A stretch of DNA of 56,023 bases, counting the filler, from Jimgerdemannia flammicorona (Eukaryota), in assembly GCA_003990765.1 (NCBI GenBank). It is 2 parts of 2 records of this genome, joined end to end, with 100 filler letters (N's around TTAATTAATTAA, not from the genome) between each part and the next. Parts side by side here need not be neighbours in the genome. Positions count along the whole stretch, not along the records: positions 28,074 to 56,023 come from RBNJ01000591.1; 1 more part is not named here. One strand, 5' to 3'. Positions 16,506-47,428 of this stretch are shown here, piece after piece (position 1 is the first letter of the stretch; each line of letters starts with the position of its first letter). The notes beneath the pieces were generated by a model. It did not search any database, was not told the DNA's origin, and saw only the letters and a list, made by a program, of their open reading frames with translations. Both the position numbers and the translations under genes were made by a program.

Positions 16506-17686
16506 CAGGGTCCTTTCTCTGCTACCTTACTGGTCACAAGGTTTGGTAGGCGACCTTTTGAGTCCCCTTTCCCCTATTATTACCCCCTCTACCTTGGGTT
16601 GGTTTGCTGTGCCTGCAGGGGCATAGTGGGAGGAGGGCAATGGTGATGAGTTGCCCCTTTATCAGTGTCAGATCAGTGCTTCCTCCACTTTTTCATGGAT
16701 TCTGGTGCCTTCAGCTGCGTCTGGGGTGTACCCATTTTGGTGCGGCATCTTCTTCCTTTTACCATTGCCAACAAGGTGTTGTCTCAGTATATCTCAGGCT
16801 ACATAGAGAGTCGGCCAACCTTGGGTGTCAAGTGCTCAGTATAGGTTACCTGCAGGTCCTTGGTGCCTGTGGTGGGGCCCTCTGGCTTTGGCGAGCTTCC
16901 TGGTGAGTGTGGTTCTGGCATAGGTGACTGCTTTTCAGGTGTTGTTGGGATGGGAGGGGAGATGGCTGTCACAGATAGGTGGAAGGACAATAACAGTGAA
17001 CCAGTAGGGTGCCAGGCTGGGGGCAGTCATCAGGGCTGGGGCAGGTGCTGCTTCAGTGGGGCCTTTTGATTGGTGCGGCATGGTTAGGTGGTAGGTGTCA
17101 CTATCAGCTTCTTTTGGCAGTCAGCGGGGTTGGGCCCCAGTCATCAGGGGGGGTCAGGAGGCCCGAGGCTACCTATTTCAGGTATCTTGGCTGCACTCAA
17201 CTGGAACCAGGAGCTGACATGGCAATGTGATCGAGGCCCACAGGCTTGAGTAGTGAGGTATTGGGGGTTTTCTCCCACCTCACATATAAGTCCTTTACTC
17301 ACCTCAACTGGGAGAACCAGACCCTACCCACCATATTGTGCTTTGATAAGAGTTTTTTATTTGCCTGTCATTCTCTTTGGGGTGGTAGGGGCTATTCTAT
17401 TCGGCTCGGGCATAGCCTTGTATATACATTGGGTTCTCAGGCATGCACTTTCAGTCGTTGGCATATGGTTGGGTTTCCCCTGGTGGTAGGGAGAGCATGG
17501 TGTGTAGAATGAGGTGCAGGCCTATCGGCCCTGCTGTGCCTGGTATGGTCGAGCTGCTGGATAATAGCTAGCCTAGGTTAATGGGGGGGCAGTGCTTGGT
17601 GGGTGGTGGGAGAGGGTTTTGGCCTATATAGTCTAGGTAAAAATCCACAGGACATGAGTCTGTTAAAAAAAAAAAAAAAAAAAAAA
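16506..17686 (+). mobile_element. 1.18-kb non-autonomous poly(A) retroposon (SINE-like), copy 1
   Basis: A22 tail at 17665-17686. Perfect 15-bp TSD GTAAGAGAAAGTACT at 16491-16505 and 17687-17701. Confidence 0.9.
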
Positions 17687-33034: not shown

Positions 33035-34584
33035 CTAAGCCGGACGAGCGAAGACCTCAGGCATCTGGTTTCCATTCATCGCCATGTGGAGAGCAATGGA
33101 TCGGAGGTTCTTGGCAGCATTAATGTCTCTGGGATCCAGTCGTCACCTGTTCGCTCACGGACACGTTCCAGGGAGTCCAGCATCTGACACTTGGAGCACA
33201 CCTTGGACGAGCAGAATTTGGGGACCTTGATGGAGCACAGAATACTTCTCAGGACACACCAGCTCTCTTCCCTTTTATGGTAGGCAAGAAGATGGCATCT
33301 CCGAATGCCACCACTATCTGCTTCAGTTCATTGTGAGGTTCTGTGCACTTCCACTTTGTGCTGCATGGACTGGCATCAATAGAATCACCAGAGGGAGACA
33401 GGTTTGACTCAGAGGCTCCTTGCCCCTTTCTCTGCTACCTTACTGGTCACAAGGTTTGGTAGGCAACCTTCCAAGTTCCCTTTCCCCTATTATTATCCCC
33501 TCTACTTCAGGTTGGTTTGCTGTGCCTGTATGGATATGGTGGGAGGAGGGCAATGGTGATGAGTTACCTCTTTATTAGTGTCAGATTGGTGTCTTCTCCA
33601 CTTTTTTGCAGTTTCTGATGCCTTCAGCTATGTCTGGAGTATATCCGTTTTGGTGCGGCACCTTCTTCCTTTTGCTATTGCTAATAAGGTGGTGTCTCGG
33701 TGTATTCCAGGCTATATAGGGAGTCAGCCGACCTTAGGCATCAAGTGCTTAGTATAGATTATCTGCAGGTTCTTGGTACTTGTAGTGGGGCCCTCTGGCT
33801 TTGGTGAGCTTCCCGACAAGCTAGTTCTGGCATAGGTGACTGCTTTTCAGGTGTTGTTGGGATGAGAGGAGAGATGGTCATCACAGATAGGAGAAAGGGT
33901 AATAACAGTGGGCCAGTAGGGTGCCAGGCTGGGGACAGTTATCAGGGCTGGGGCAGGTGCTGTTTTGGTGGGGTCTTTTGATTGGTGTGGTATAGTTAGG
34001 TAGTAGGTATCACTCTCGGCTCTTTTGGTGGGTTGGTGGATTAGGTCCTAGTCATCAGGGGGGGTCAGGGGGCCTGAGGCTACCTATTTTAGGCATCTTG
34101 GCTATACTTAACTGGAACTGAGAGCTGACATGGCAATGTGATCAAGGCCTACAGGCTTGAGTAGTAGAGTATTGGGGGTCTCCTCCCACCTTATATATAA
34201 GTTCTTTACTCACCTCGACTGAGAAAACTAGGCCCTATCTACCATATTATACTTTGATGAGAGTTTTTCTTTGTCTGTTATTCTCTTTGGGGTGGCAGGG
34301 GCTATTCTATTCAGCTCAGGCATGGCCTTATACATATGTTGGGTTCTCGGGCATATACTTTCAGTCATTGGCATATGGTTGGATTTCCCCTGGTGGTAGG
34401 AAGAGCATAGTGTGCAGAATGAGATACAGGCCACTATAGACCCTGTTGCACCTGGTATGGTCAAGCTGCTGAACAATAGCTAGCCTAGGTTAATGGGGGG
34501 GCAGTGCTTGGTGGGTAGTAGGGAAGGGTTTTGGCCTATATAGTCTAGGTTCTCTTCTAATAAAAATCTACAGAACATGAGTCC

Positions 34585-37755: not shown

Positions 37756-38927
37756 TTTTAATAGACTCAAAGTTCTGTGGATTTTTATTAGAAGGGAACC
37801 TAGACTATATAGACCAAAACTCTCTCCCACCACCCATCAAGCACTGCCTCCCCATTAACCTAGGCTAGCTATTGTCCAGCAGCTTGACCATGCCAGGTGC
37901 AGTAGAGTCTATAGTGGCCCATATCTCATTCTATATACTATACTCTTCCTATCACCAGAGAGAACTCAGATATGTCAATAACCAAAAGTATATGCCCAAG
38001 ATCCCATTGTATGTACAAGACTATGTCTGAGCTGAATAGAATAGCTTCTGCCACCTTAAAGAGAATGACAGACAAAGAAAAACTCTCATCAAAGTATATC
38101 ATAGTAGATAGGACCTGATTCTCCCAGTCAAGGTGAGTAAAGGACTTACATATAAGATAAGAAGAGACCCCCAATACCCCACTACTCAAGCCTGTAGGCC
38201 TTGATCATATTGCTATATCAGCTTCCAGTTTTAGTTAAGTATAGCCAAGATACCTGAAATGGGTAGCCTCAGGCCCCCTGACCCCCTCAATGACCAGGAC
38301 CCAATCTGCTGAATTGTTAAAAGAAGCTGAGAGTGACACCTACCACCTAACTGCTCTGCACCAATCAAAAGATCTCATCAAAGCAGTACCTGCCTAGCTC
38401 CAATAACTGCTCTCAGCCTAATACTCTACTGGTTCACTGTAATTACTCTTCCTTTTATCTGTAATGGCCATCTCCCCTCTCATCCTAATATTACCTAAAA
38501 AACAGTCACCTACACCAGAACTGTACTTGCTGGGAAGCTTACCAAAGCCAGAGGGCCACACTATAGGCACCAAGGACCTATAGATAATCTACATTAGGCA
38601 CTTGATGTCTAAGGTCGATTAACTCTCTATATAACTCATAACATACTGAGACAGCATCTTGTTGGTGACAATAAAAGGAAGAAAGTACTGCACCAAAATA
38701 GATGTACTCCAGATGCAGCCAAAGGCACCAGAAACTATGAAAAAGTAAAGAAGATACTAATCAGATACTAATAAAAGAGCAACTCATCACTATTACCTCT
38801 CTTCCTCCCACTGCTCTGCAATAGATACAGCAAACCAACCCAAGGTAGAGGGGGTAATAATTATGGAAAGTGGACTTGGAAGGTTGCCTACCAAACCATT
38901 GTGACTGGTAAGATAGTAGAGAAAGAG
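37738..38927 (-). mobile_element. Poly(A) retroposon, copy 3
   Basis: Poly(T) at 37738-37759, followed by the full-length reverse complement of copies 1 and 2. Confidence 0.88.
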
Positions 38928-39412: not shown

Positions 39413-41879
39413 ATGCCTGTTAAGAACTCACTCGTTAACCTCAATAAGCAGGCTATTGAGCTCACTCATACTCGCAAGCCTGGTCAAACAGGTGTGCCGA
39501 AGCTTCTTGTCAAAGGCTAATAATATCAACGTTCTTCTGAAACATTCGTGTCGTGGTATCTTCCGATGTTCCTTAGGCATTTGGCGCAACGCCGTTGCAC
39601 CCGAAGCTTTGACCGTATTCCCGATTCCAGATGTCACCACCCTTTACGATATGTTTGAGAATGGTAAGGTTGACGCAAAATATTTCAGATATGAAAGCTC
39701 GCTCGTCGCATTCGATTGCTTATCGCCGTCGGCCTGTCAACAGTGAGCATGAAGAAACACGCAAAACGTCCTTATCTTGGTCATCGACCGTATGACCCCG
39801 TCACGGATACGTATGGACGGTATATGTGGCAAACATACGAGACAATCGCGGAGAGGAGGACGAATTTTGGAAGTGGCCTATTGCACCTGAACGAACACGT
39901 CATCAAGGCAAAGGATGTCGAGAAATGGACCGTCGGTAAGTTTGAATGAGGTATCGAGACCACTGACTTATTTAAAAATGAGAATACTTATACGAAATTC
40001 TTTGCAAATACAAGGTGTCATTGCGAATAATAGGTAATTCCCAGATCATGAACGACGCGTCCTGGCAATCAATACATCTACTCATGGTTGATTCATATTT
40101 TACCGTAATACTCAGGCCCGAATGGATGATCGTCGACCAAGCATGCGTTGCATACAATCTGGTAAGCGGAGTACTCATTATTTTCTTTTCTTTGGGCTGT
40201 TATGCTACTACTATCCAGTGTACAATCCAGAACTGACTTCGAATACGCGATTCTTACCAGATCACGGTTCCCCTTTACGAAACCCTCGGCCCGGACACAA
40301 TCGAATTTGTTACCAGACATGCAGAGCTGCGCGTCATCATCACAAGTTCCGACCATGTCCCCAACCTTCTCAGCATCGCCGACAAACTGAAGAACTGCAA
40401 GGTCATCATCTCCATGGACTGCTTGTCGTCTGGAAAGAAGCCTGCGATTGGAACGATGGCTACGGAACAGGCATTAAAGGCTTGGGCGCGCGATAAGAAC
40501 GTACTTTTGATAGAATTCGAGGAGGTGGAAACATTGGGCAAGGAAAACCCACGGCCGCACAACCCTCCAAAACCAAGTGATCTGTTTACGCTTTCGTATA
40601 CTTCGGGAACCACTGGAGATCCAAAGGTATATATTCTCCAATGTGAGTTGAAACTGCGTGTATACTAATTTAGCATACTAAACAACATTTTTCCAATGGT
40701 CATCAGGGTGCCATGATCAGCCACAAGAACATGGTTGTTGCCAGCTGCGGCGCGGGAATCTTTTGGCCCTTATACCACACGGACGTAATGATATCGTATC
40801 TGCCGCTCGCGCACATCTACGGCCGCATTATGGACTGGACTGCGACGCTGTACTCTGCCAGCATCGGGTATTTCCGCGGCGACGTGTTGCTCTTGCTCGA
40901 GGACATTAGCATGCTGAAGCCAACTATATTCCCGTCCGTACCGAGGCTGCTTAACAAGATATACTCGAAACTCAAGGCCGCAACGGTTAGCGCTTGAGAG
41001 GCAGCAAATTTCGATCTTCGTGTGATACAGGTTGTTCTCGAACCGAAATGGTCATGTCAGTAACCATCCCCTTCCGACAGATCGACGCGCCCGGGGTTGC
41101 AGGAAATCTGGCTCGAACCGGGTACGCAGCGAAGATGGCCAGCTTCGCAGCCGGTACAGGCGCAGCGCACCCCTTGTGGGACCGACTACTCTTTGACAAA
41201 GTCAAGCTGGTTCTCGGCGGCAAACTGCGCTTGATTCTCACGGCCTCCGCACCGCTCTCGACCGACGTATTGCAGTTCCTGAGAATTGTTTTCTCAATTG
41301 AAATTACTGAAGGTCTGTCATCAGTACTATAGTTCTCTTCATTCGGATCGGCGTTCTTTTTGGGGGGTTTTTTGGCTAAAGGTTTCCTTCAAAATCGCTA
41401 GGTTATGGGCTCACTGAAGGTACAGCGGCAGCTAATCTCGGGCTACCTGGCGAAAACATACCTGGTCATGTAGGTCCACCGCAACCCTGGTATGACACCC
41501 ACATTACTGTCCTTATCTTTACGGGATTGCGTGTACCGTGTGGTATACGGTCGGTGCTCTGTGCTAGAAATTAGCGCTGGTCACTAATCGTTAATATGCC
41601 ATGTCTTCGACATCAGCGTCGAGACTAAATTGATTGATGTACCAGAGATGGGTATGATTCCCGCCTTATGTAAGAGTTTATGTGACACTTATGCATCCGG
41701 TTATTAACCCAATTTTTCTTCCACAGATTATCTTTCCACTAACAAACCCTACGCTCGAGGCGAAATTTGCCAGAGAGGTGGCAACGTGTTCATGGGATAT
41801 TTCAAGGACGAGCAAAAGACAAAGGAAGCCATTGACGAGGAAGGGTGGCTTCACACTGGTTTGTTTCAATGTTAATGTT

Positions 41880-41915
<36 letters not shown>

Positions 41916-43004
41916 GAATTTCGTGAATCAATTCGCTCTTAAGGGTTTTAGTGACCGATAACCTCACTTGATGCCTCCCTCATATATATATATATGTATG
42001 CTACAGGAGATATCGGGTTTTACGACGAACGAGGTAGGTCATATAATTCAATAAATGGCACAGAAAAAATTCCATCTTATACTCTATCAATTGAAATTTA
42101 GGAACGCTGTTCATCGTCGATCGGAAAAAGAATATTTTCAAGCTTGCGCAGGTAAATTTGTAAAATCACTTACCGTCTTTTATCCCGCGCTTTTGGTGAT
42201 GATCCAGCACGCTGCAGTTTTTTGTTCTATTGATCATATTTTTCTTAATTTTACTCTTTATACGACGACTCCGATAGGGTGAATACATTGCGCCAGAGAA
42301 GGTAAGTTTCCATTTATAGGCATAAATTTTTCTCATCTTGCATACCATCCGCTAATGCATCAACCATATCTCTCTCGATCACAGATCGAAAACGTCTATA
42401 TTGGTAGTAACCTTCTACTGCAGATATTTGTGTGTGGCAAGAGCATTGAATATTATCTCGTTGGGATCGTTGTCCCTGACCCCGTCGCCTTCGTCCCGTG
42501 GGCAAATGTTATCACCGGCAAGGAGGTGGACCCGGCGGACGCCGCCGGGTTCGCGAGCTTGTGCGCCGACCCTGCCGTGCGTCCGGCTCTGCTCAAGGAA
42601 TTGACCAAAGTCGGGAAGGGACGCAAGCTGAGGGGGTAAGTAGATTGTATTCATTGGGTTTTTGCAGGGATTTATGCATGGAAGGGGGGGGGGTAGTTTC
42701 TTTACCGGACTCTTCGGATATACAAGTAACCTGGTCCGTTTGATTTAGATTCGAGTTTATCAAGAACATTCACCTGGAAGTGGATCCATTCTCGATTGAA
42801 AATGACCTTTTCACCCCGACGTGAGTATCTAACGTCTGTCCGTCGTTCCACTCGATTTCATGTTGATTATTCCATTCCACATCCTGCAGGTTCAAAATTA
42901 AACGTGCCAAGGCAGCCAAACACTATCAAGCTGTGATCGACAGGCTATATACTGAGGGACCATTAGATGAGCAGGCTACGGCGACGGCACGGGTTAAGCT
43001 CTGA
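39413..43004 (+). CDS. Long-chain fatty acyl-CoA synthetase (FAA/ACSL family), multi-exon
   Basis: [67 protein letters not shown] across GT-AG exons. Ends ARVKL*. Confidence 0.95.
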
Positions 43005-43329
43005 GGATTAGATGATTGTTTTTATATTTCGTGAAACGGTTCAACTGATTCGAACTTTTAGACTGTTATCGAATATGATCAATCTATCCTTTTTCAATCA
43101 TTCTTTTGCGAAACTTCGCGCCTCAGAATAGTATGTTAGTTGTAATGAACTTGTGTCTTTCGAGTCCTGGTAGTTATAATAATATAACATGCATGCAATA
43201 ATGGTAGATCGTTGACCAGACTGGTCTACGAAATCAGAGAGAGCGTGAATAGGGTAGATATGAAGTATGCAACGACTGACTGACCAATGTGGGTACGCTA
43301 TGTCCTACGCCTACATTGGAACCTATATA

Positions 43330-43440
43330 TTCCTTATCAAGCTTCACATTATTGTTTAAGTCTAAATTAGGATATATACAAGTCCCACGAGGGAGCAGGC
43401 TCCCGCGCCAGCCTTTTCAGGCAGACTTTTTCCGAATAGT
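43330..43440 (-). ncRNA. Candidate omegaRNA at the 3' end of the IS607-like element
   Basis: GC-rich, CpG-retaining island at the stop codon: GGCTGGCGCGGGAGCCTGCTCCCTCGTGGGAC, with a GGGAG/CTCCC stem. Function is inferred from TnpB/Fanzor architecture. Confidence 0.45.
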
Positions 43441-44910
43441 GAGGTAATGAAGGAGAATGTTGCAAGTGCCATTGAAATTCTGGTCAAGCTTTGTCTGACA
43501 TGCCAGACAGCAAAACACCTTAGACCCGCCTAGGCCATAGTGGAGATATCCATGGCACCCACATGTCTTGGAAGTGTACTCTTCTGTGCAGAGGATGACC
43601 TGGCACCATGAGTGCTTGCATACTTTATGAATCAGATGCTGGCAAAAGTGGAAGTGTGACTATGTGTACATTGCACATGCAGTCTTAGAATAAATATAAC
43701 ATTGCTCTGTCTGATCATCTCCTGTGTATGGAACTCTGGCAAGAGAATGATATGATAGTTCTCATATAGCTACCATGTGAGCTTATGATGGCAGTCATTG
43801 ATCAAGTATTGAATATACTTGTGAATACATAGTATAATATGTTGCAACCTGTAATTAGTAAATTTATGTATATTTCCTTTAATATCTGATCTCTTTTCTA
43901 TTATTAAAAAGGCCAAAAATGATATATATATGCTAAACTGATCTATAGTACTTATGTTTATTTATCTTCTTATAAATACTATCTCACTTACTCTGAAGCC
44001 TGTCATATTTATGGCTCAGTCTATAGATATAGGTAATATCATTCTTCTCTCACTTAATTGCTAACTCACTTGAGTCATATCTAGTTATAAATATTTGTAT
44101 ATCAGAATTCAATACAATAACCCCTATACCTCTTTTATCAGATATAGGGCTTTGGCTCTTGGTCTATACATCAAAGAGCATGAGAATATAGAGATAGAAT
44201 TCACCAAGATAATTCATTATAAGCTAGCTATTATATTTAAGATTAACTGGTAGAGGCTCAGTAGACCTCATATTAGGGAGAAATACAAATTCGCTATATA
44301 ATTTCCTCCAGTACTTGAAAAGTACTACAATTAACTGAAAAAAAATAAAAATAAAAATAAAATAAAATAAAAATAATTTATTGAAAATTATTAAAACTAA
44401 TATGAATTTAATGTAAAATCAAAATGATTTTCACTTGTTGATAATTCTTTTTAAAATAAAACTACATTTGAAATATATATTTTACTATAAAGTTAGAGGT
44501 ATACTCCTTGAGAAGATTATTTATAACCTCATTATGAATGTTATATGGTATCTCCAGAATTTACTCATTATTGTTCTTAAAGTTAGAGATATTGAGATAC
44601 TGTACTCTCAGATTCTTCTTGCAGTGTTTTACACCTTCATTTTGAACTATAGTAAGATACTGATTGTATGTCTATTGTGCTGTTCTCATTTTTGATTATT
44701 AATATTATAAGCATGGTTATTTTAAGAGATAAAAAAAAAAAAAAAGGTAAATTCACCCAACACACCAATATATAATATTGTTGTGGAAAAAAAAATACTC
44801 AAGAGAACAATTATTATATCCTGAGCTTCTGCTGCTCCTCATAGATAGAAAAGAGACAGATTTTTTATACTTTAACTACTGACTTCTTAGAGATCTTAGT
44901 TCTCTTTAAT
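43417..44910 (-). pseudogene. Fanzor2 / IS607 TnpB-like RNA-guided nuclease with 2-3 introns, degenerate
   Basis: KICLFSIYEEQQKL (HTH-OrfB-like), TAQ*TYNQ, LGEFYL, RuvC-I relic VIVLNSDIQIFITRYD (from VIALDPGVRTFMTGYD), DCHHKL, IILLPEF, EEYTSKTCG, GGSKVFCC..C, DQNFNGTCNI (from DRDFNGARNI). Stop at 43417-43419. Confidence 0.9.
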
Positions 44911-45514
44911 AACTTCTCATCTCTGCTTATAGTTGGCAGCTGAGTATAGTCTGTTATATCACACTACAAAAACTGTAATAATGATAAACAGGTTCTCTAT
45001 AAATTCTCTAGTCTTGGAGTTATCAATGGTGCTAATGTTGAACTAAGAATCATAAGCTAAGTTCTGTTCTTAAAGATCCATTCTATGAGTTCTGATCCAA
45101 AATGACACAACTGGTCTTTTTGAGTAATCACTACTTCTTTGACTCCTCCTGCATATACTCATTCCAAAAGGACAACAAATCTTCTGTATTTCCAGTTAAG
45201 CCCCAAGCTAATATCACTGACAATCTCATATTCTGAGAAATACTATTGTAGTTCAGTGATTTGTCATTTAAGATCTCTTTATTGGTACTCAGAACTGACT
45301 CTGGTATAGCAGATCTTGGCCTTTTGTGTAGATTGTTATTGTTTTACAAGTTGGTTGTCACTAAACAATCTGCAGTAGAGTAAAGTCATTTGCCACTAGA
45401 GGTTCTGATGAAAGACACATGCCCTGAGACAGTCCACCACTGCAGAGTTTCAACTGAGACATCATAGGTTTGTTTGATACTACTTGTGCTTGTGTAGGTG
45501 GTATTTCGAGCCAG
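44820..45514 (-). pseudogene. tnpA: IS607-family TnpA: MerR-like HTH + serine recombinase, degenerate
   Basis: YDVSVETLQWW...IRTSSGK*LY (HTH), KICYTRVSS (catalytic Ser, 45291-45308), DLK*QI, SDISLGLNWK, VVITQKDQLCHFGSELIEWIF (from KDRLCRFG). Confidence 0.9.
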
Positions 45515-46417
45515 GTTTTTTTTTTTTTTTTTTGGAGATTTGCTGAGGAATGTACAGAATCCGCGCATGTGGTAGATTGCATTTATATGTTTTGCACGTG
45601 TTAAATATGAAAGCCAAACTGTCACTCACATATCCCTATTAATTTCCATAGGAAAGTGAGCTTTATTCTGGAACGTTCAGAAACGCTGCAACGGTACATA
45701 CGTGGAAACTACGACTCCGGATGGCTTGAGTCGGACCCAGCCATTAATATCTCGATTCCAGAGGACGCCAGAATTTAGGGAGCAGATGTTGTCTCCTGTT
45801 TGGTTATCGCAGGTCCTTCTCGAGACCCCAGATGAATGTCCATTGTTTCTGTGTCCAGATTATTGTGGCACAAGTCGCTCTATTGCTTGGGGAGGCGGGC
45901 TTGGATTAGGTTGACATGATTAACATTGTAGAGATGGATGGAATTGACGCCGCTGCCAGTGACGAAGTATGCTTGATGGACAGAAAGAAGAGTCATTGGG
46001 GAGAGGATTTTTATAGTATCTCAGGACGGAAAGGAACAAGGCAAGGCAAGGCAAGGTGAAACGAAATAAGATGAAAAGGAATAATGCCTTGCAAAACGAT
46101 AAGGAGAAGAAAAAAAGGAGCAACACAAGGCAGGACAAAAAGGGCAAAGAGGACAAAGAGGACAAAAAGGACAAAGAGCAATACTCGGCAAGGCGTATAC
46201 ATTGGCCATCAATAGCCAAAGAGGGACCCCATTAGCCATTAGCCACAAATCATTGAACGATGGACGATTTGATTGCCAAAATAGACGCCAGTGAGCAATT
46301 TCCTTTGTTTATTACTAGAACAATCCTGAAACCGTGGCGACATAGAAGTTGGCTTGACAGCCGTTGTAACAAAATTCAAAGCAGGCTCTTTGGATATGAT
46401 AGTATAAGGCTTTCTGC

Positions 46418-47428
46418 CTATATGATTTCGAGGAGCTCAACCTCGCTGTGCACGTGTGAAGAGAGAATCGAGATTAGCAAAAAGGTGCTTGTTGCGAATG
46501 GTTTAAAAAAAGGCGTAAGTGGGCGGGCCTGACTTACAAGATCAACGTGGCGTTCGGAGGGATCTGGGGCCGAGATATATGAGTTAAACATGGTGAGTTC
46601 AGTAAGCTCCGGCTATCCAGGATGCACAAAGGACGAAGGGTAATAAAGGACCATACCAAGCCGGGGAAGCCGCGTGGGCCGTACGCATAATCACCAGTGA
46701 TAGTGAACCTGGCTATCTGGCCTACGGAGAGTTGGGGTACACCCTCATCCCAGCCTAACACGAGGACAGGTGTGTTAGGATGGTCGAATTTGGGTGCACA
46801 TCAGACTATGGCTCAATCCAAGACCGATATCGTAAAGCTTACCCTTGATGACCTGGCCGACACCAATATTGCAAGAGAACGGCTTTCCATTATCGCGGGA
46901 TGAGTCGAATTTGGTGCCATCTTCTAGCTGCAAAGAGCATGAAAAAGATGTATGAAGGTCACTACTGCTTCGTAAAATGTGAAGGCGACAGCATCATCAA
47001 TCCAACAGCGTTGCCAACCCTACCGTGCCGACGTCTGAGGTATTTGGCATTCGGGTCATTATAAGAAAGTGATAAAAGGTATGAGAGGTCACGAATAATG
47101 GGAATCGGGTACCGTCAGGAAACTGTCAACCTGATTGCACGGTGAACAGATTCACTTACAGTGGATCTGAACTTTGTCTCCCTATCGTTCATTCATGCGT
47201 TCAAAACAAGAAAAGAGCCGTGTTAGCTTAAAATACGCACACAGCAGCGTAAGTATCGGAATTCCAAGTTAGTTACCTCCTTGGGAAATCTCTAGAGAGG
47301 AGAAAAGGAGTGGGTCGGTTTGTCAGTAAGAAATAAAAAAGGACAAAGCTGATTAGCGTAGAATTCTGAGGGTGGTGTACACATACAACGCCATCACCCG
47401 GCTTGATAGTTTCGATGGTAACGCCCAT
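46418..47428 (-). CDS. FPR1: FKBP12-type peptidyl-prolyl isomerase, 8 exons
   Basis: Spliced: MGVTIETIKPGDGV|RFPKE|GDKVQIH|YVGT|LEDGTKFDSSRD...GVGQVIKG|WDEGVPQLSVG...YAYGPRGFPGL|IPPNATLI|FEVELLEII*. Confidence 0.95.

Follow-up and report, generated by a model that had tools for sequence, protein, structure and literature searches.

The window, the whole stretch of 56,023 nucleotides (filler included) of Jimgerdemannia flammicorona DNA that was analysed, contains a decayed IS607-type element of 2.39 kb on the minus strand (45695-43307), flanked by host genes with introns (an AMP-binding enzyme and an FKBP). The element carries the relic of a serine recombinase and the relic of a Fanzor2 gene with three introns (Table 1). 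The recombinase, TnpA, lies upstream of the Fanzor gene and overlaps it in a different frame, and the two relics were recognised by the profiles PF00239 and PF07282, read with X at the stop codons. The AMP-binding gene (approximately 40200-43004, plus strand), presumably encoding a long-chain acyl-CoA synthetase-like enzyme, converges on the right end of the element with a transcript reaching approximately 43167; the FKBP gene (approximately 46418-46990, minus strand) lies upstream of the element.

Table 1 Features of the element and of its neighbour, ordered from left to right on the minus strand.
Feature	Position	Strand	Evidence and remarks
544-bp non-autonomous element, second IS607-Fanzor2 family	45718..46261	-	Left ATCG/TTCAATG (slash, junction), right CCATCCG
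ACCG	45692..45695	-	Putative target-derived TAM with left CG core; 20 left ends
Left end	45500..45691	-	Imperfect palindrome 45682-45666, likely TnpA binding (predicted)
IS607 TnpA serine recombinase relic	44890..45520 (approximate)	-	PF00239 E 5.3e-07; DNA match to L166 TnpA region
Fanzor2 N-terminal part	44815..45118	-	Overlaps TnpA in other frame; start not located; tblastn
Intron 1	44691..44814	-	Splice sites decayed in window copy, GT/AG in sister copies; absent from subfamily B
Fanzor2 relic exon (MGTARWTYN region in relatives)	44435..44690	-	47% identity to L166 protein
Intron 2, GT...TTTTCAG	44335..44434	-	In 7 rows, precisely missing from 9 (subfamily B)
Fanzor2 relic exon with RuvC I	43943..44334	-	DPG is NSD in window copy; tblastn with L166
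Intron 3	43849..43942	-	Branch-point-like TACTAAT, 3′ CAG; 5′ GT decayed to AT in window copy
Fanzor2 relic last exon: RuvC II/III, C4 zinc finger	43417..43848	-	Stops and frameshifts; PF07282 E 2.9e-07; tblastn with intact L166
Predicted omegaRNA scaffold, element right end	43308..43432	-	Fold, 18 copies, covariation, NlovFz2 layout
5′ hairpin, GAAA tetraloop, holds TGA stop	43407..43426	-	Core pairs p 0.96-0.98
Pseudoknot hairpin GGGA-GCCTGC-TCCC	43391..43404	-	6-nt loop 43400-43395, predicted pseudoknot arm
Long terminal stem-loop, 5′ arm GGACTTGTATATATCC	43318..43386	-	Outer pairs p 0.95-1.0
Predicted pseudoknot partner GTAGGC	43309..43314	-	RNAalifold pairs it with hairpin loop across 15 copies; covaries
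Terminal CG, likely crossover core and last scaffold bases	43308..43309	-	C 14/18, G 16/18, rest mostly decay products
Predicted guide (host flank)	43288..43307	-	First base T 18/18 at 43307; remainder varies freely

Copies, decay and coding relics

Matches to the element within its own genome number at least 29 for the 3′ part and at least 32 for the 5′ part, and the distinct ends, 20 at the left and 18 at the right, lie in unrelated flanks and define a multicopy element. In the paired copies (the window copy, L086 and L099) no flank duplication was found beyond the common CGT, and the termini of the element, which retains a TnpA relic, are not inverted repeats. A Fanzor2* arrangement (TIR/TSD, non-IS607 capture) was ruled out, given this relic and ends without inverted repeats.

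Decay of the element body (45495-43500) is nearly all C>T/G>A, also outside CpG, and spares approximately 200 bp at the left edge and approximately 100 bp at the right edge. In L041 and L097, copies inside AT-rich repeats, the ends are decayed too. The nuclease and transposase genes of the window copy have been destroyed by this C>T/G>A decay and the copy is dead, so that any scaffold it carries is a fossil.

The Fanzor frame ends ...IRKKSA at a TGA stop (43419-43417). By tblastn, the intact metagenome relative P0005/L166, whose top PDB match is ApmFz2 (9b0l, E 6.7e-22), maps the Fanzor exons at 38-47% identity, with the gene start inside TnpA in a different frame. The relative has DPG in RuvC I and the shifted RuvC II Glu. 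In the window copy DPG has become NSD, the Glu lies six residues before the C4 finger (EEYTSKTC..C) and the RD motif has decayed to LDQNFNG (DRDFNGARNI in L121). DPG is kept in one of seven distinct family copies matched (L009), which has a stop three codons past it. The genome contains 70 zinc-ribbon (PF07282) matches, some of which lie on short contigs and stay free of stops for 168-240 aa, and no intact Fanzor2 gene was found among the element copies fetched. The least decayed zinc-ribbon stretches lie on the short contigs C32534 and C15806 (stop-free over 168-173 aa).

Introns 1 and 2, segments with intron ends, are precisely absent from nine subfamily-B copies. Intron 3 occupies the same place in both subfamilies with a different sequence, and L166 has none of the three. 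As subfamily A spread with two introns and subfamily B without them, these introns may have been gained while the element was still transposing.

Conservation of the element ends

The 18 distinct right ends were anchored on an internal motif (43324-43310), leaving the last bases (43309 onward) free; the count excludes one false match and one duplicate. Conservation among them does not end at the stop codon but passes it by approximately 110 nt, halting after ...GTAGGCG-T (43308/43307): the bases at 43309-43307 are C in 14, G in 16 and T in all 18, while at 43306 no base occurs in more than 8/18. The left ends (n = 20), anchored from the sixth base, read R in 20, C in 18, C in 18, G in 16 and T in 20, and the sequence before them varies. 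Exceptions to RCCGT are C>T or G>A decay products. The first base is A in 17 and G in 3, with a G bias one base further out (10/20). The two junctions have CG(T) in common.

Predicted structure of the omegaRNA scaffold

For the last 126 nt (43432-43307) the folding energy is -44.1 kcal/mol (z -4.88), and none of 200 shuffles was as stable. When the element and its flanks were divided into 24 tiles of 125 nt, this stretch ranked lowest (z -4.66), the next tile having -3.03. An Rfam scan of 43200-46400 gave one chance-level match (mir-379, 18 bits against a gathering threshold of 56). Together with the 18 copies and the covariation described below, the fold argues for the Fanzor2 omegaRNA scaffold that a sequence-only reading had proposed at this end of the element. 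Very probably, a dead IS607-Fanzor2 copy has its conserved right end here, its last approximately 125 bases being a predicted omegaRNA scaffold that likely ends with the CG at 43309-43308, with a guide that would start at 43307. The scaffold, with a presumed 5′ boundary, covers the last approximately four codons and the stop of the Fanzor2 frame; this placement, at a conserved right end overlapping the end of the open reading frame, leaves the variable flank as the predicted guide.

The predicted structure comprises several stem-loops and a pseudoknot in which a hairpin loop pairs with guide-adjacent bases, and it is supported by covariation. The GGGAG-CCTG-CTCCC hairpin previously noted after the stop was recovered at 43404-43391 of the minus strand (pair probabilities 0.76-0.77), and the model makes it the functionally central one, its loop being an arm of the pseudoknot. 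The neighbouring GGACTTGTATATATCC had been taken for a possible second weak stem, a suggestion that failed since no local pair there reaches p 0.15. A local GGA...TCC stem was ruled out because GGACTTGTATATATCC is the 5′ arm of a stem with 43334-43318 (p 0.95-1.0).

Covariation in copies and relatives

RNAalifold, applied to 15 own-genome copies, recovered the 5′ hairpin, the long stem and the helix between the loop GCCTRC and the terminal GTAGGC. Covariation in this set was nearly nil (2/38 pairs; covariation term +0.21), which fits copies whose differences stem from decay. A divergent set was composed of 80 metagenome and 70 viral loci, with the anchor motif present in 139 of the 150. A first pseudoknot scan, for a 4-nt loop on a 4-bp stem, gave a weak result with a CG tail (7/77 against a swap-control mean of 1.95, maximum 7) and 21/77 with an NG tail (swap control 9.6, maximum 15). 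The rescan criteria (3-bp G-C stem, 6-7-nt loop, and five loop bases able to pair with a segment that lies 45-150 nt downstream and is followed by a G in register) are post hoc, having been chosen after the weak first scan. With them, 28 of 75 dereplicated loci match against a swap-control mean of 4.25 and maximum of 10 (500 runs), a count in which approximately 10 of the 28 come from a single group of relatives and a few resemble chance matches, 47/75 being without a match. At least eight loop/partner types occur among the matches: CCTAC/GTAGG, CTTAC/GTAAG, CTTAG/CTAAG, CTACA/TGTAG, CTTGT/ACAAG, CTACC/GGTAG, CCTAG/CTAGG and GATAC/GTATC.

In 13 close sequences 92.3% of cells are paired, a figure reached by 0/500 shuffles and compared with 31-47% in slid controls; the set is related and was hand-picked after viewing, and its relatedness inflates this statistic. 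Changes on both sides of a pair were found in 10/32 pairs, including 3/8 in the 5′ hairpin, 4/15 in the long stem and 2/6 in the pseudoknot. The predicted structure at this end covaries, by these two-sided changes and by the rescan. The loop/partner types supply natural compensatory changes for the Fanzor2 pseudoknot, for which the available portions of the literature offer one structure as support, along with folding predictions and mutants of bacterial systems.

The terminal dinucleotide switches between CG, TG, AG and GG in L182, L187, L196, L168, L175 and L208, with the final G constant. In relatives pairing is frequent between the first loop base and the base preceding the final G, which would link the pseudoknot with the crossover core.

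Crossover core and TAM

According to the available parts of 10.1101/2023.08.09.552727 and PMC10690162, IS607 recombinases join DNA at a dinucleotide that element and target have in common, and filled sites escape cutting because their right junction does not match the TAM. The left ends begin with RCCGT or its decay products, which makes CG the likely core and (R)CCG the likely TAM. In relatives, in the second family of this genome and in NlovFz2 the terminal CG has other bases after it, which further suggests a CG core and an (R)CCG TAM, with T reflecting the target preference of the window family.

Comparisons of flanks with the fetched loci gave no paired empty site, no paralogue spanning a junction. 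For L086 and L099 the right flank is a single-copy sequence and gave no empty site, and L097 lies inside a decayed tandem array whose units fail to align cleanly across the junction. RCCG and T are presumed to come from the target. The right end of L018 adjoins T-TCAATGATTT, the sequence that follows RCCG at the left ends of the second family, where RCCG or a decay product is found in 7/8 anchored matches. This junction, one indirect case in which the left flank is unseen, would fit and support RCCG(T) as target.

The same scaffold could be combined with a GT core, or include the T, in which case the target would be RCC-GT, the end 43307, the guide would run from 43306 and the TAM would be RCCGT. 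Such a core is possible for the window family because both junctions share CGT: T follows CG in 18/18 right ends and also in the closest metagenome relatives (L166, L167, L195, L177 and L179), and the ISXfa1 scaffold is described as taking in the first flank base (10.1101/2023.08.09.552727, available in part). We consider it unlikely, however, because the relatives L171 and L173 end GGCG followed by C or G, the second family ends CG followed by any base, the NlovFz2 scaffold ends GGCG, and the register of the pseudoknot sets the end at the same G in all of them.

That ACCGT on the left and GCGT on the right are the element's own termini, inserted without target preference and with no CCG TAM, is improbable. 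A paired empty site was not found and RCCGTT is also present at the left end of the metagenome relatives L166 and L195, as this alternative would have it, but the first base varies (A/G 17/3), the G bias lies one base out (10/20) and L018 sits exactly at a second-family RCCG/TTCAATG junction (one case; slash, junction). It also conflicts with IS607 recombination, which needs the core at both junctions (PMC10690162), and with the measured TAM of NlovFz2, CCG (PMC10432273), as given in the accessible portions of those reports.

Retention of the ends and transcription

The right end had been described as a GC-rich island that kept its CpGs. The island itself was borne out (57% GC and four CpGs at 43440-43380, against 24% and none at 44000-43800); its use as a mark of the scaffold was not. 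Across 16 close-subfamily copies, CpG cells are kept in 63/73 cases within 200 bp of the left edge and 3/569 in the middle, and in the last two right-end bins in 7/58 and then 6/20 (last 89 bp). Selection as the cause of CpG retention was ruled out, the left end keeping more than the right. As the left end is without an omegaRNA and keeps more CpG, the pattern is an edge effect of what we infer to be methylation-type decay. CpG survival at the tails of decayed transposons should accordingly not be read as selection on an RNA.

RNA data were unstranded contigs of three runs, in small shares (0.05-0.13). Contig cover of 43284-43404 (the last approximately 100 bp) carries the long flanks of other copies, and the loose contig ends at 43305, 43307 and 45695 likewise derive from other copies; this cover speaks neither for nor against a discrete omegaRNA. 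The contigs of the three runs contained no joint skipping the element and no cover of 43405-45098, an absence that carries no weight. At another copy (L007:654-1404) a ribosomal protein L7/uL30 gene ends approximately 97 bp from the right end, in convergent orientation, which explains the deep RNA cover of the right-end bin.

These data bear on a very improbable alternative, in which selection maintains the right ends as active guide RNAs working in trans, a library of host-sequence guides for a surviving Fanzor2 elsewhere in the genome. It would account for ends far less decayed than the open reading frame and for their cover by RNA contigs, and the 70 zinc-ribbon matches with their stop-free stretches (168-240 aa) on some short contigs would offer candidate nucleases. 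The left end is, however, better kept than the right (63/73 against 6/20 CpG cells), several copies have scaffold lesions (deletions in L011, L012 and L023), the RNA cover consists of convergent host transcripts in the case checked, and the copies fetched include no intact Fanzor2 gene.

The geometry first proposed, a scaffold end at 43330-43360 with the GG at 43332-43333 as a candidate crossover dinucleotide, recalls the GG cores and GGG TAMs of characterised bacterial IS607 elements (10.1101/2023.08.09.552727; PMC10690162; both available in part) and of ApmFz2, and has practically no chance of being right, because the 18 copies are conserved to 43307, 25-50 bases beyond such an end and 25 nt past the GG, the GG lies inside the long stem and pairs with CC 43370-43371 (p 1.0), the left flanks contain no GG motif, and an end there would cut off the pseudoknot partner.

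Comparison with known systems and proposed mechanism

The testable features of an IS607-Fanzor2 element with its omegaRNA appear to be present, in a predicted layout like those of the NlovFz2, ApmFz2 and ISXfa1 systems. The comparisons that follow use the portions available of the reports cited. NlovFz2 from Naegleria lovaniensis has a validated scaffold with the hairpin GGG-TCCTTT-CCC, which ends AAAGG-CG, and the TAM CCG (PMC10432273), which equals the left-flank motif of the window element. By eye, the two have in common a GGG-[6-nt loop]-CCC hairpin after GCG/CGTT, a long terminal stem, a final N-AGG-CG complementary to the hairpin loop and, in relatives of the window element, the linker TTGCA(A/G)GA, while the protein motifs WMGTARW and DPGVRTF are common to NlovFz2 and the intact relatives. 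Unlike NlovFz2, the window copy is dead, has three spliceosomal introns and a fungal host, and its family is marked by a constant T at guide position 1 and by a purine preceding CCG; its scaffold has one hairpin fewer between the pseudoknot hairpin and the long stem than those of NlovFz2 and L166.

ApmFz2 (mimivirus, PDB 9B0L) likewise combines an IS607 TnpA with a Fanzor2, and its pseudoknot joins a 5′ region to scaffold positions -4 to 0, as is predicted for the window scaffold; it differs in its GGG TAM, its approximately 205-nt scaffold, its viral origin and its lack of introns (PMC11832414, PMC10530073). The bacterial ISXfa1 (10.1101/2023.08.09.552727) and CboIStron (PMC10690162) resemble the window element in having a serine recombinase and no TIR/TSD, and also in what is predicted for it: a dinucleotide core at both junctions, three stem-loops with an essential pseudoknot, and a TAM unlike the right junction, which would protect filled sites. 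Their core is GG and their TAM GGG/TGGG, whereas the window element, in a eukaryotic host, has a presumed CG core and (R)CCG TAM. The nearest named protein relatives are Fanzor2 entries of the Glomeromycotina (Gigaspora, Diversispora, Rhizophagus, Racocetra and Ambispora), compared as proteins only, with 63% identity to the C-terminal stretch of the window relic and the same C-terminus, YLTKKESA. Several Glomeromycotina proteins are listed as FZ2 in the tree table of PMC10432273. Fanzor2 in fungi, Fanzor introns and the Fanzor2 pseudoknot have already been published (PMC10432273, PMC10530073, PMC11832414, PMC3627910, as far as their available text goes). Literature searches at the level of listings and accessible text returned no paper on the ends, TAM or omegaRNA of these fungal elements.

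By analogy with the IS607 mechanism described in the available parts of PMC10690162 and 10.1101/2023.08.09.552727, TnpA would excise the element as a circle joined at the CG core, and the circle would insert at RCCG/T sites (slash, junction), as the ends suggest. Transcription of the Fanzor2 gene would continue beyond the right end, and the product would be cut into an omegaRNA consisting of the 5′ hairpin, the small hairpin, the long stem and approximately 20 nt of host flank as guide, with the loop GCCTRC predicted, with support from covariation, to pair with the final GTAGGC as a pseudoknot. After excision, the complex of Fanzor2 and this RNA would cleave the empty site, recognised by the (R)CCG TAM and a guide match, and repair would restore the element. 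The filled right junction, which reads GGCG and not CCG, would be spared.

The window copy thus serves as a map of the scaffold end, the guide start, the likely CG core and the (R)CCG TAM of a fungal Fanzor2 lineage, intact relatives of which are present in public metagenomes. More tentatively, and with the balance tipped slightly against the whole of it, early-diverging fungi may harbour an NlovFz2-like Fanzor2 lineage with a CG core and a 4-nt RCCG TAM that gained two introns while transposing, and in which the intact, intron-free L166 and L195 would offer a ready nuclease of approximately 420-490 aa, with single-base predictions of its scaffold, guide start and TAM. The Fanzor2 TAMs described so far are of 3 nt, shorter than RCCG. 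In the second family the filled right junction reads TCCG, so that self-cutting would be avoidable only by demanding the left-end purine.

A second family and other repeats

The 544-bp element of the second family ends 22 nt before the window element, and its would-be guide therefore runs up to the target site of the latter. With this neighbour, and with the first-family right end of L018 adjoining a second-family left end, IS607-Fanzor2 elements may cluster. The second family has the loop GATGG and ends CCATC-CG (the CCATCCG end formed part of its anchor), the next base being T in 12, A in 8, G in 4 and C in 1 (n = 25). Several further Fanzor2 families are represented by L106, L107 and L130, most of them ending CCATCCG with the loop GATGG.

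A repeat of approximately 100 bp occurs three times in the window (16511-16607, 33419-33520 and 38830-38925) and is also inserted inside several IS607 copies (L039:~1020-1120). Positions 1-27000 of the window contain decayed LTR-retrotransposon-like frames, with protease, dUTPase and integrase-like motifs recognised by eye.
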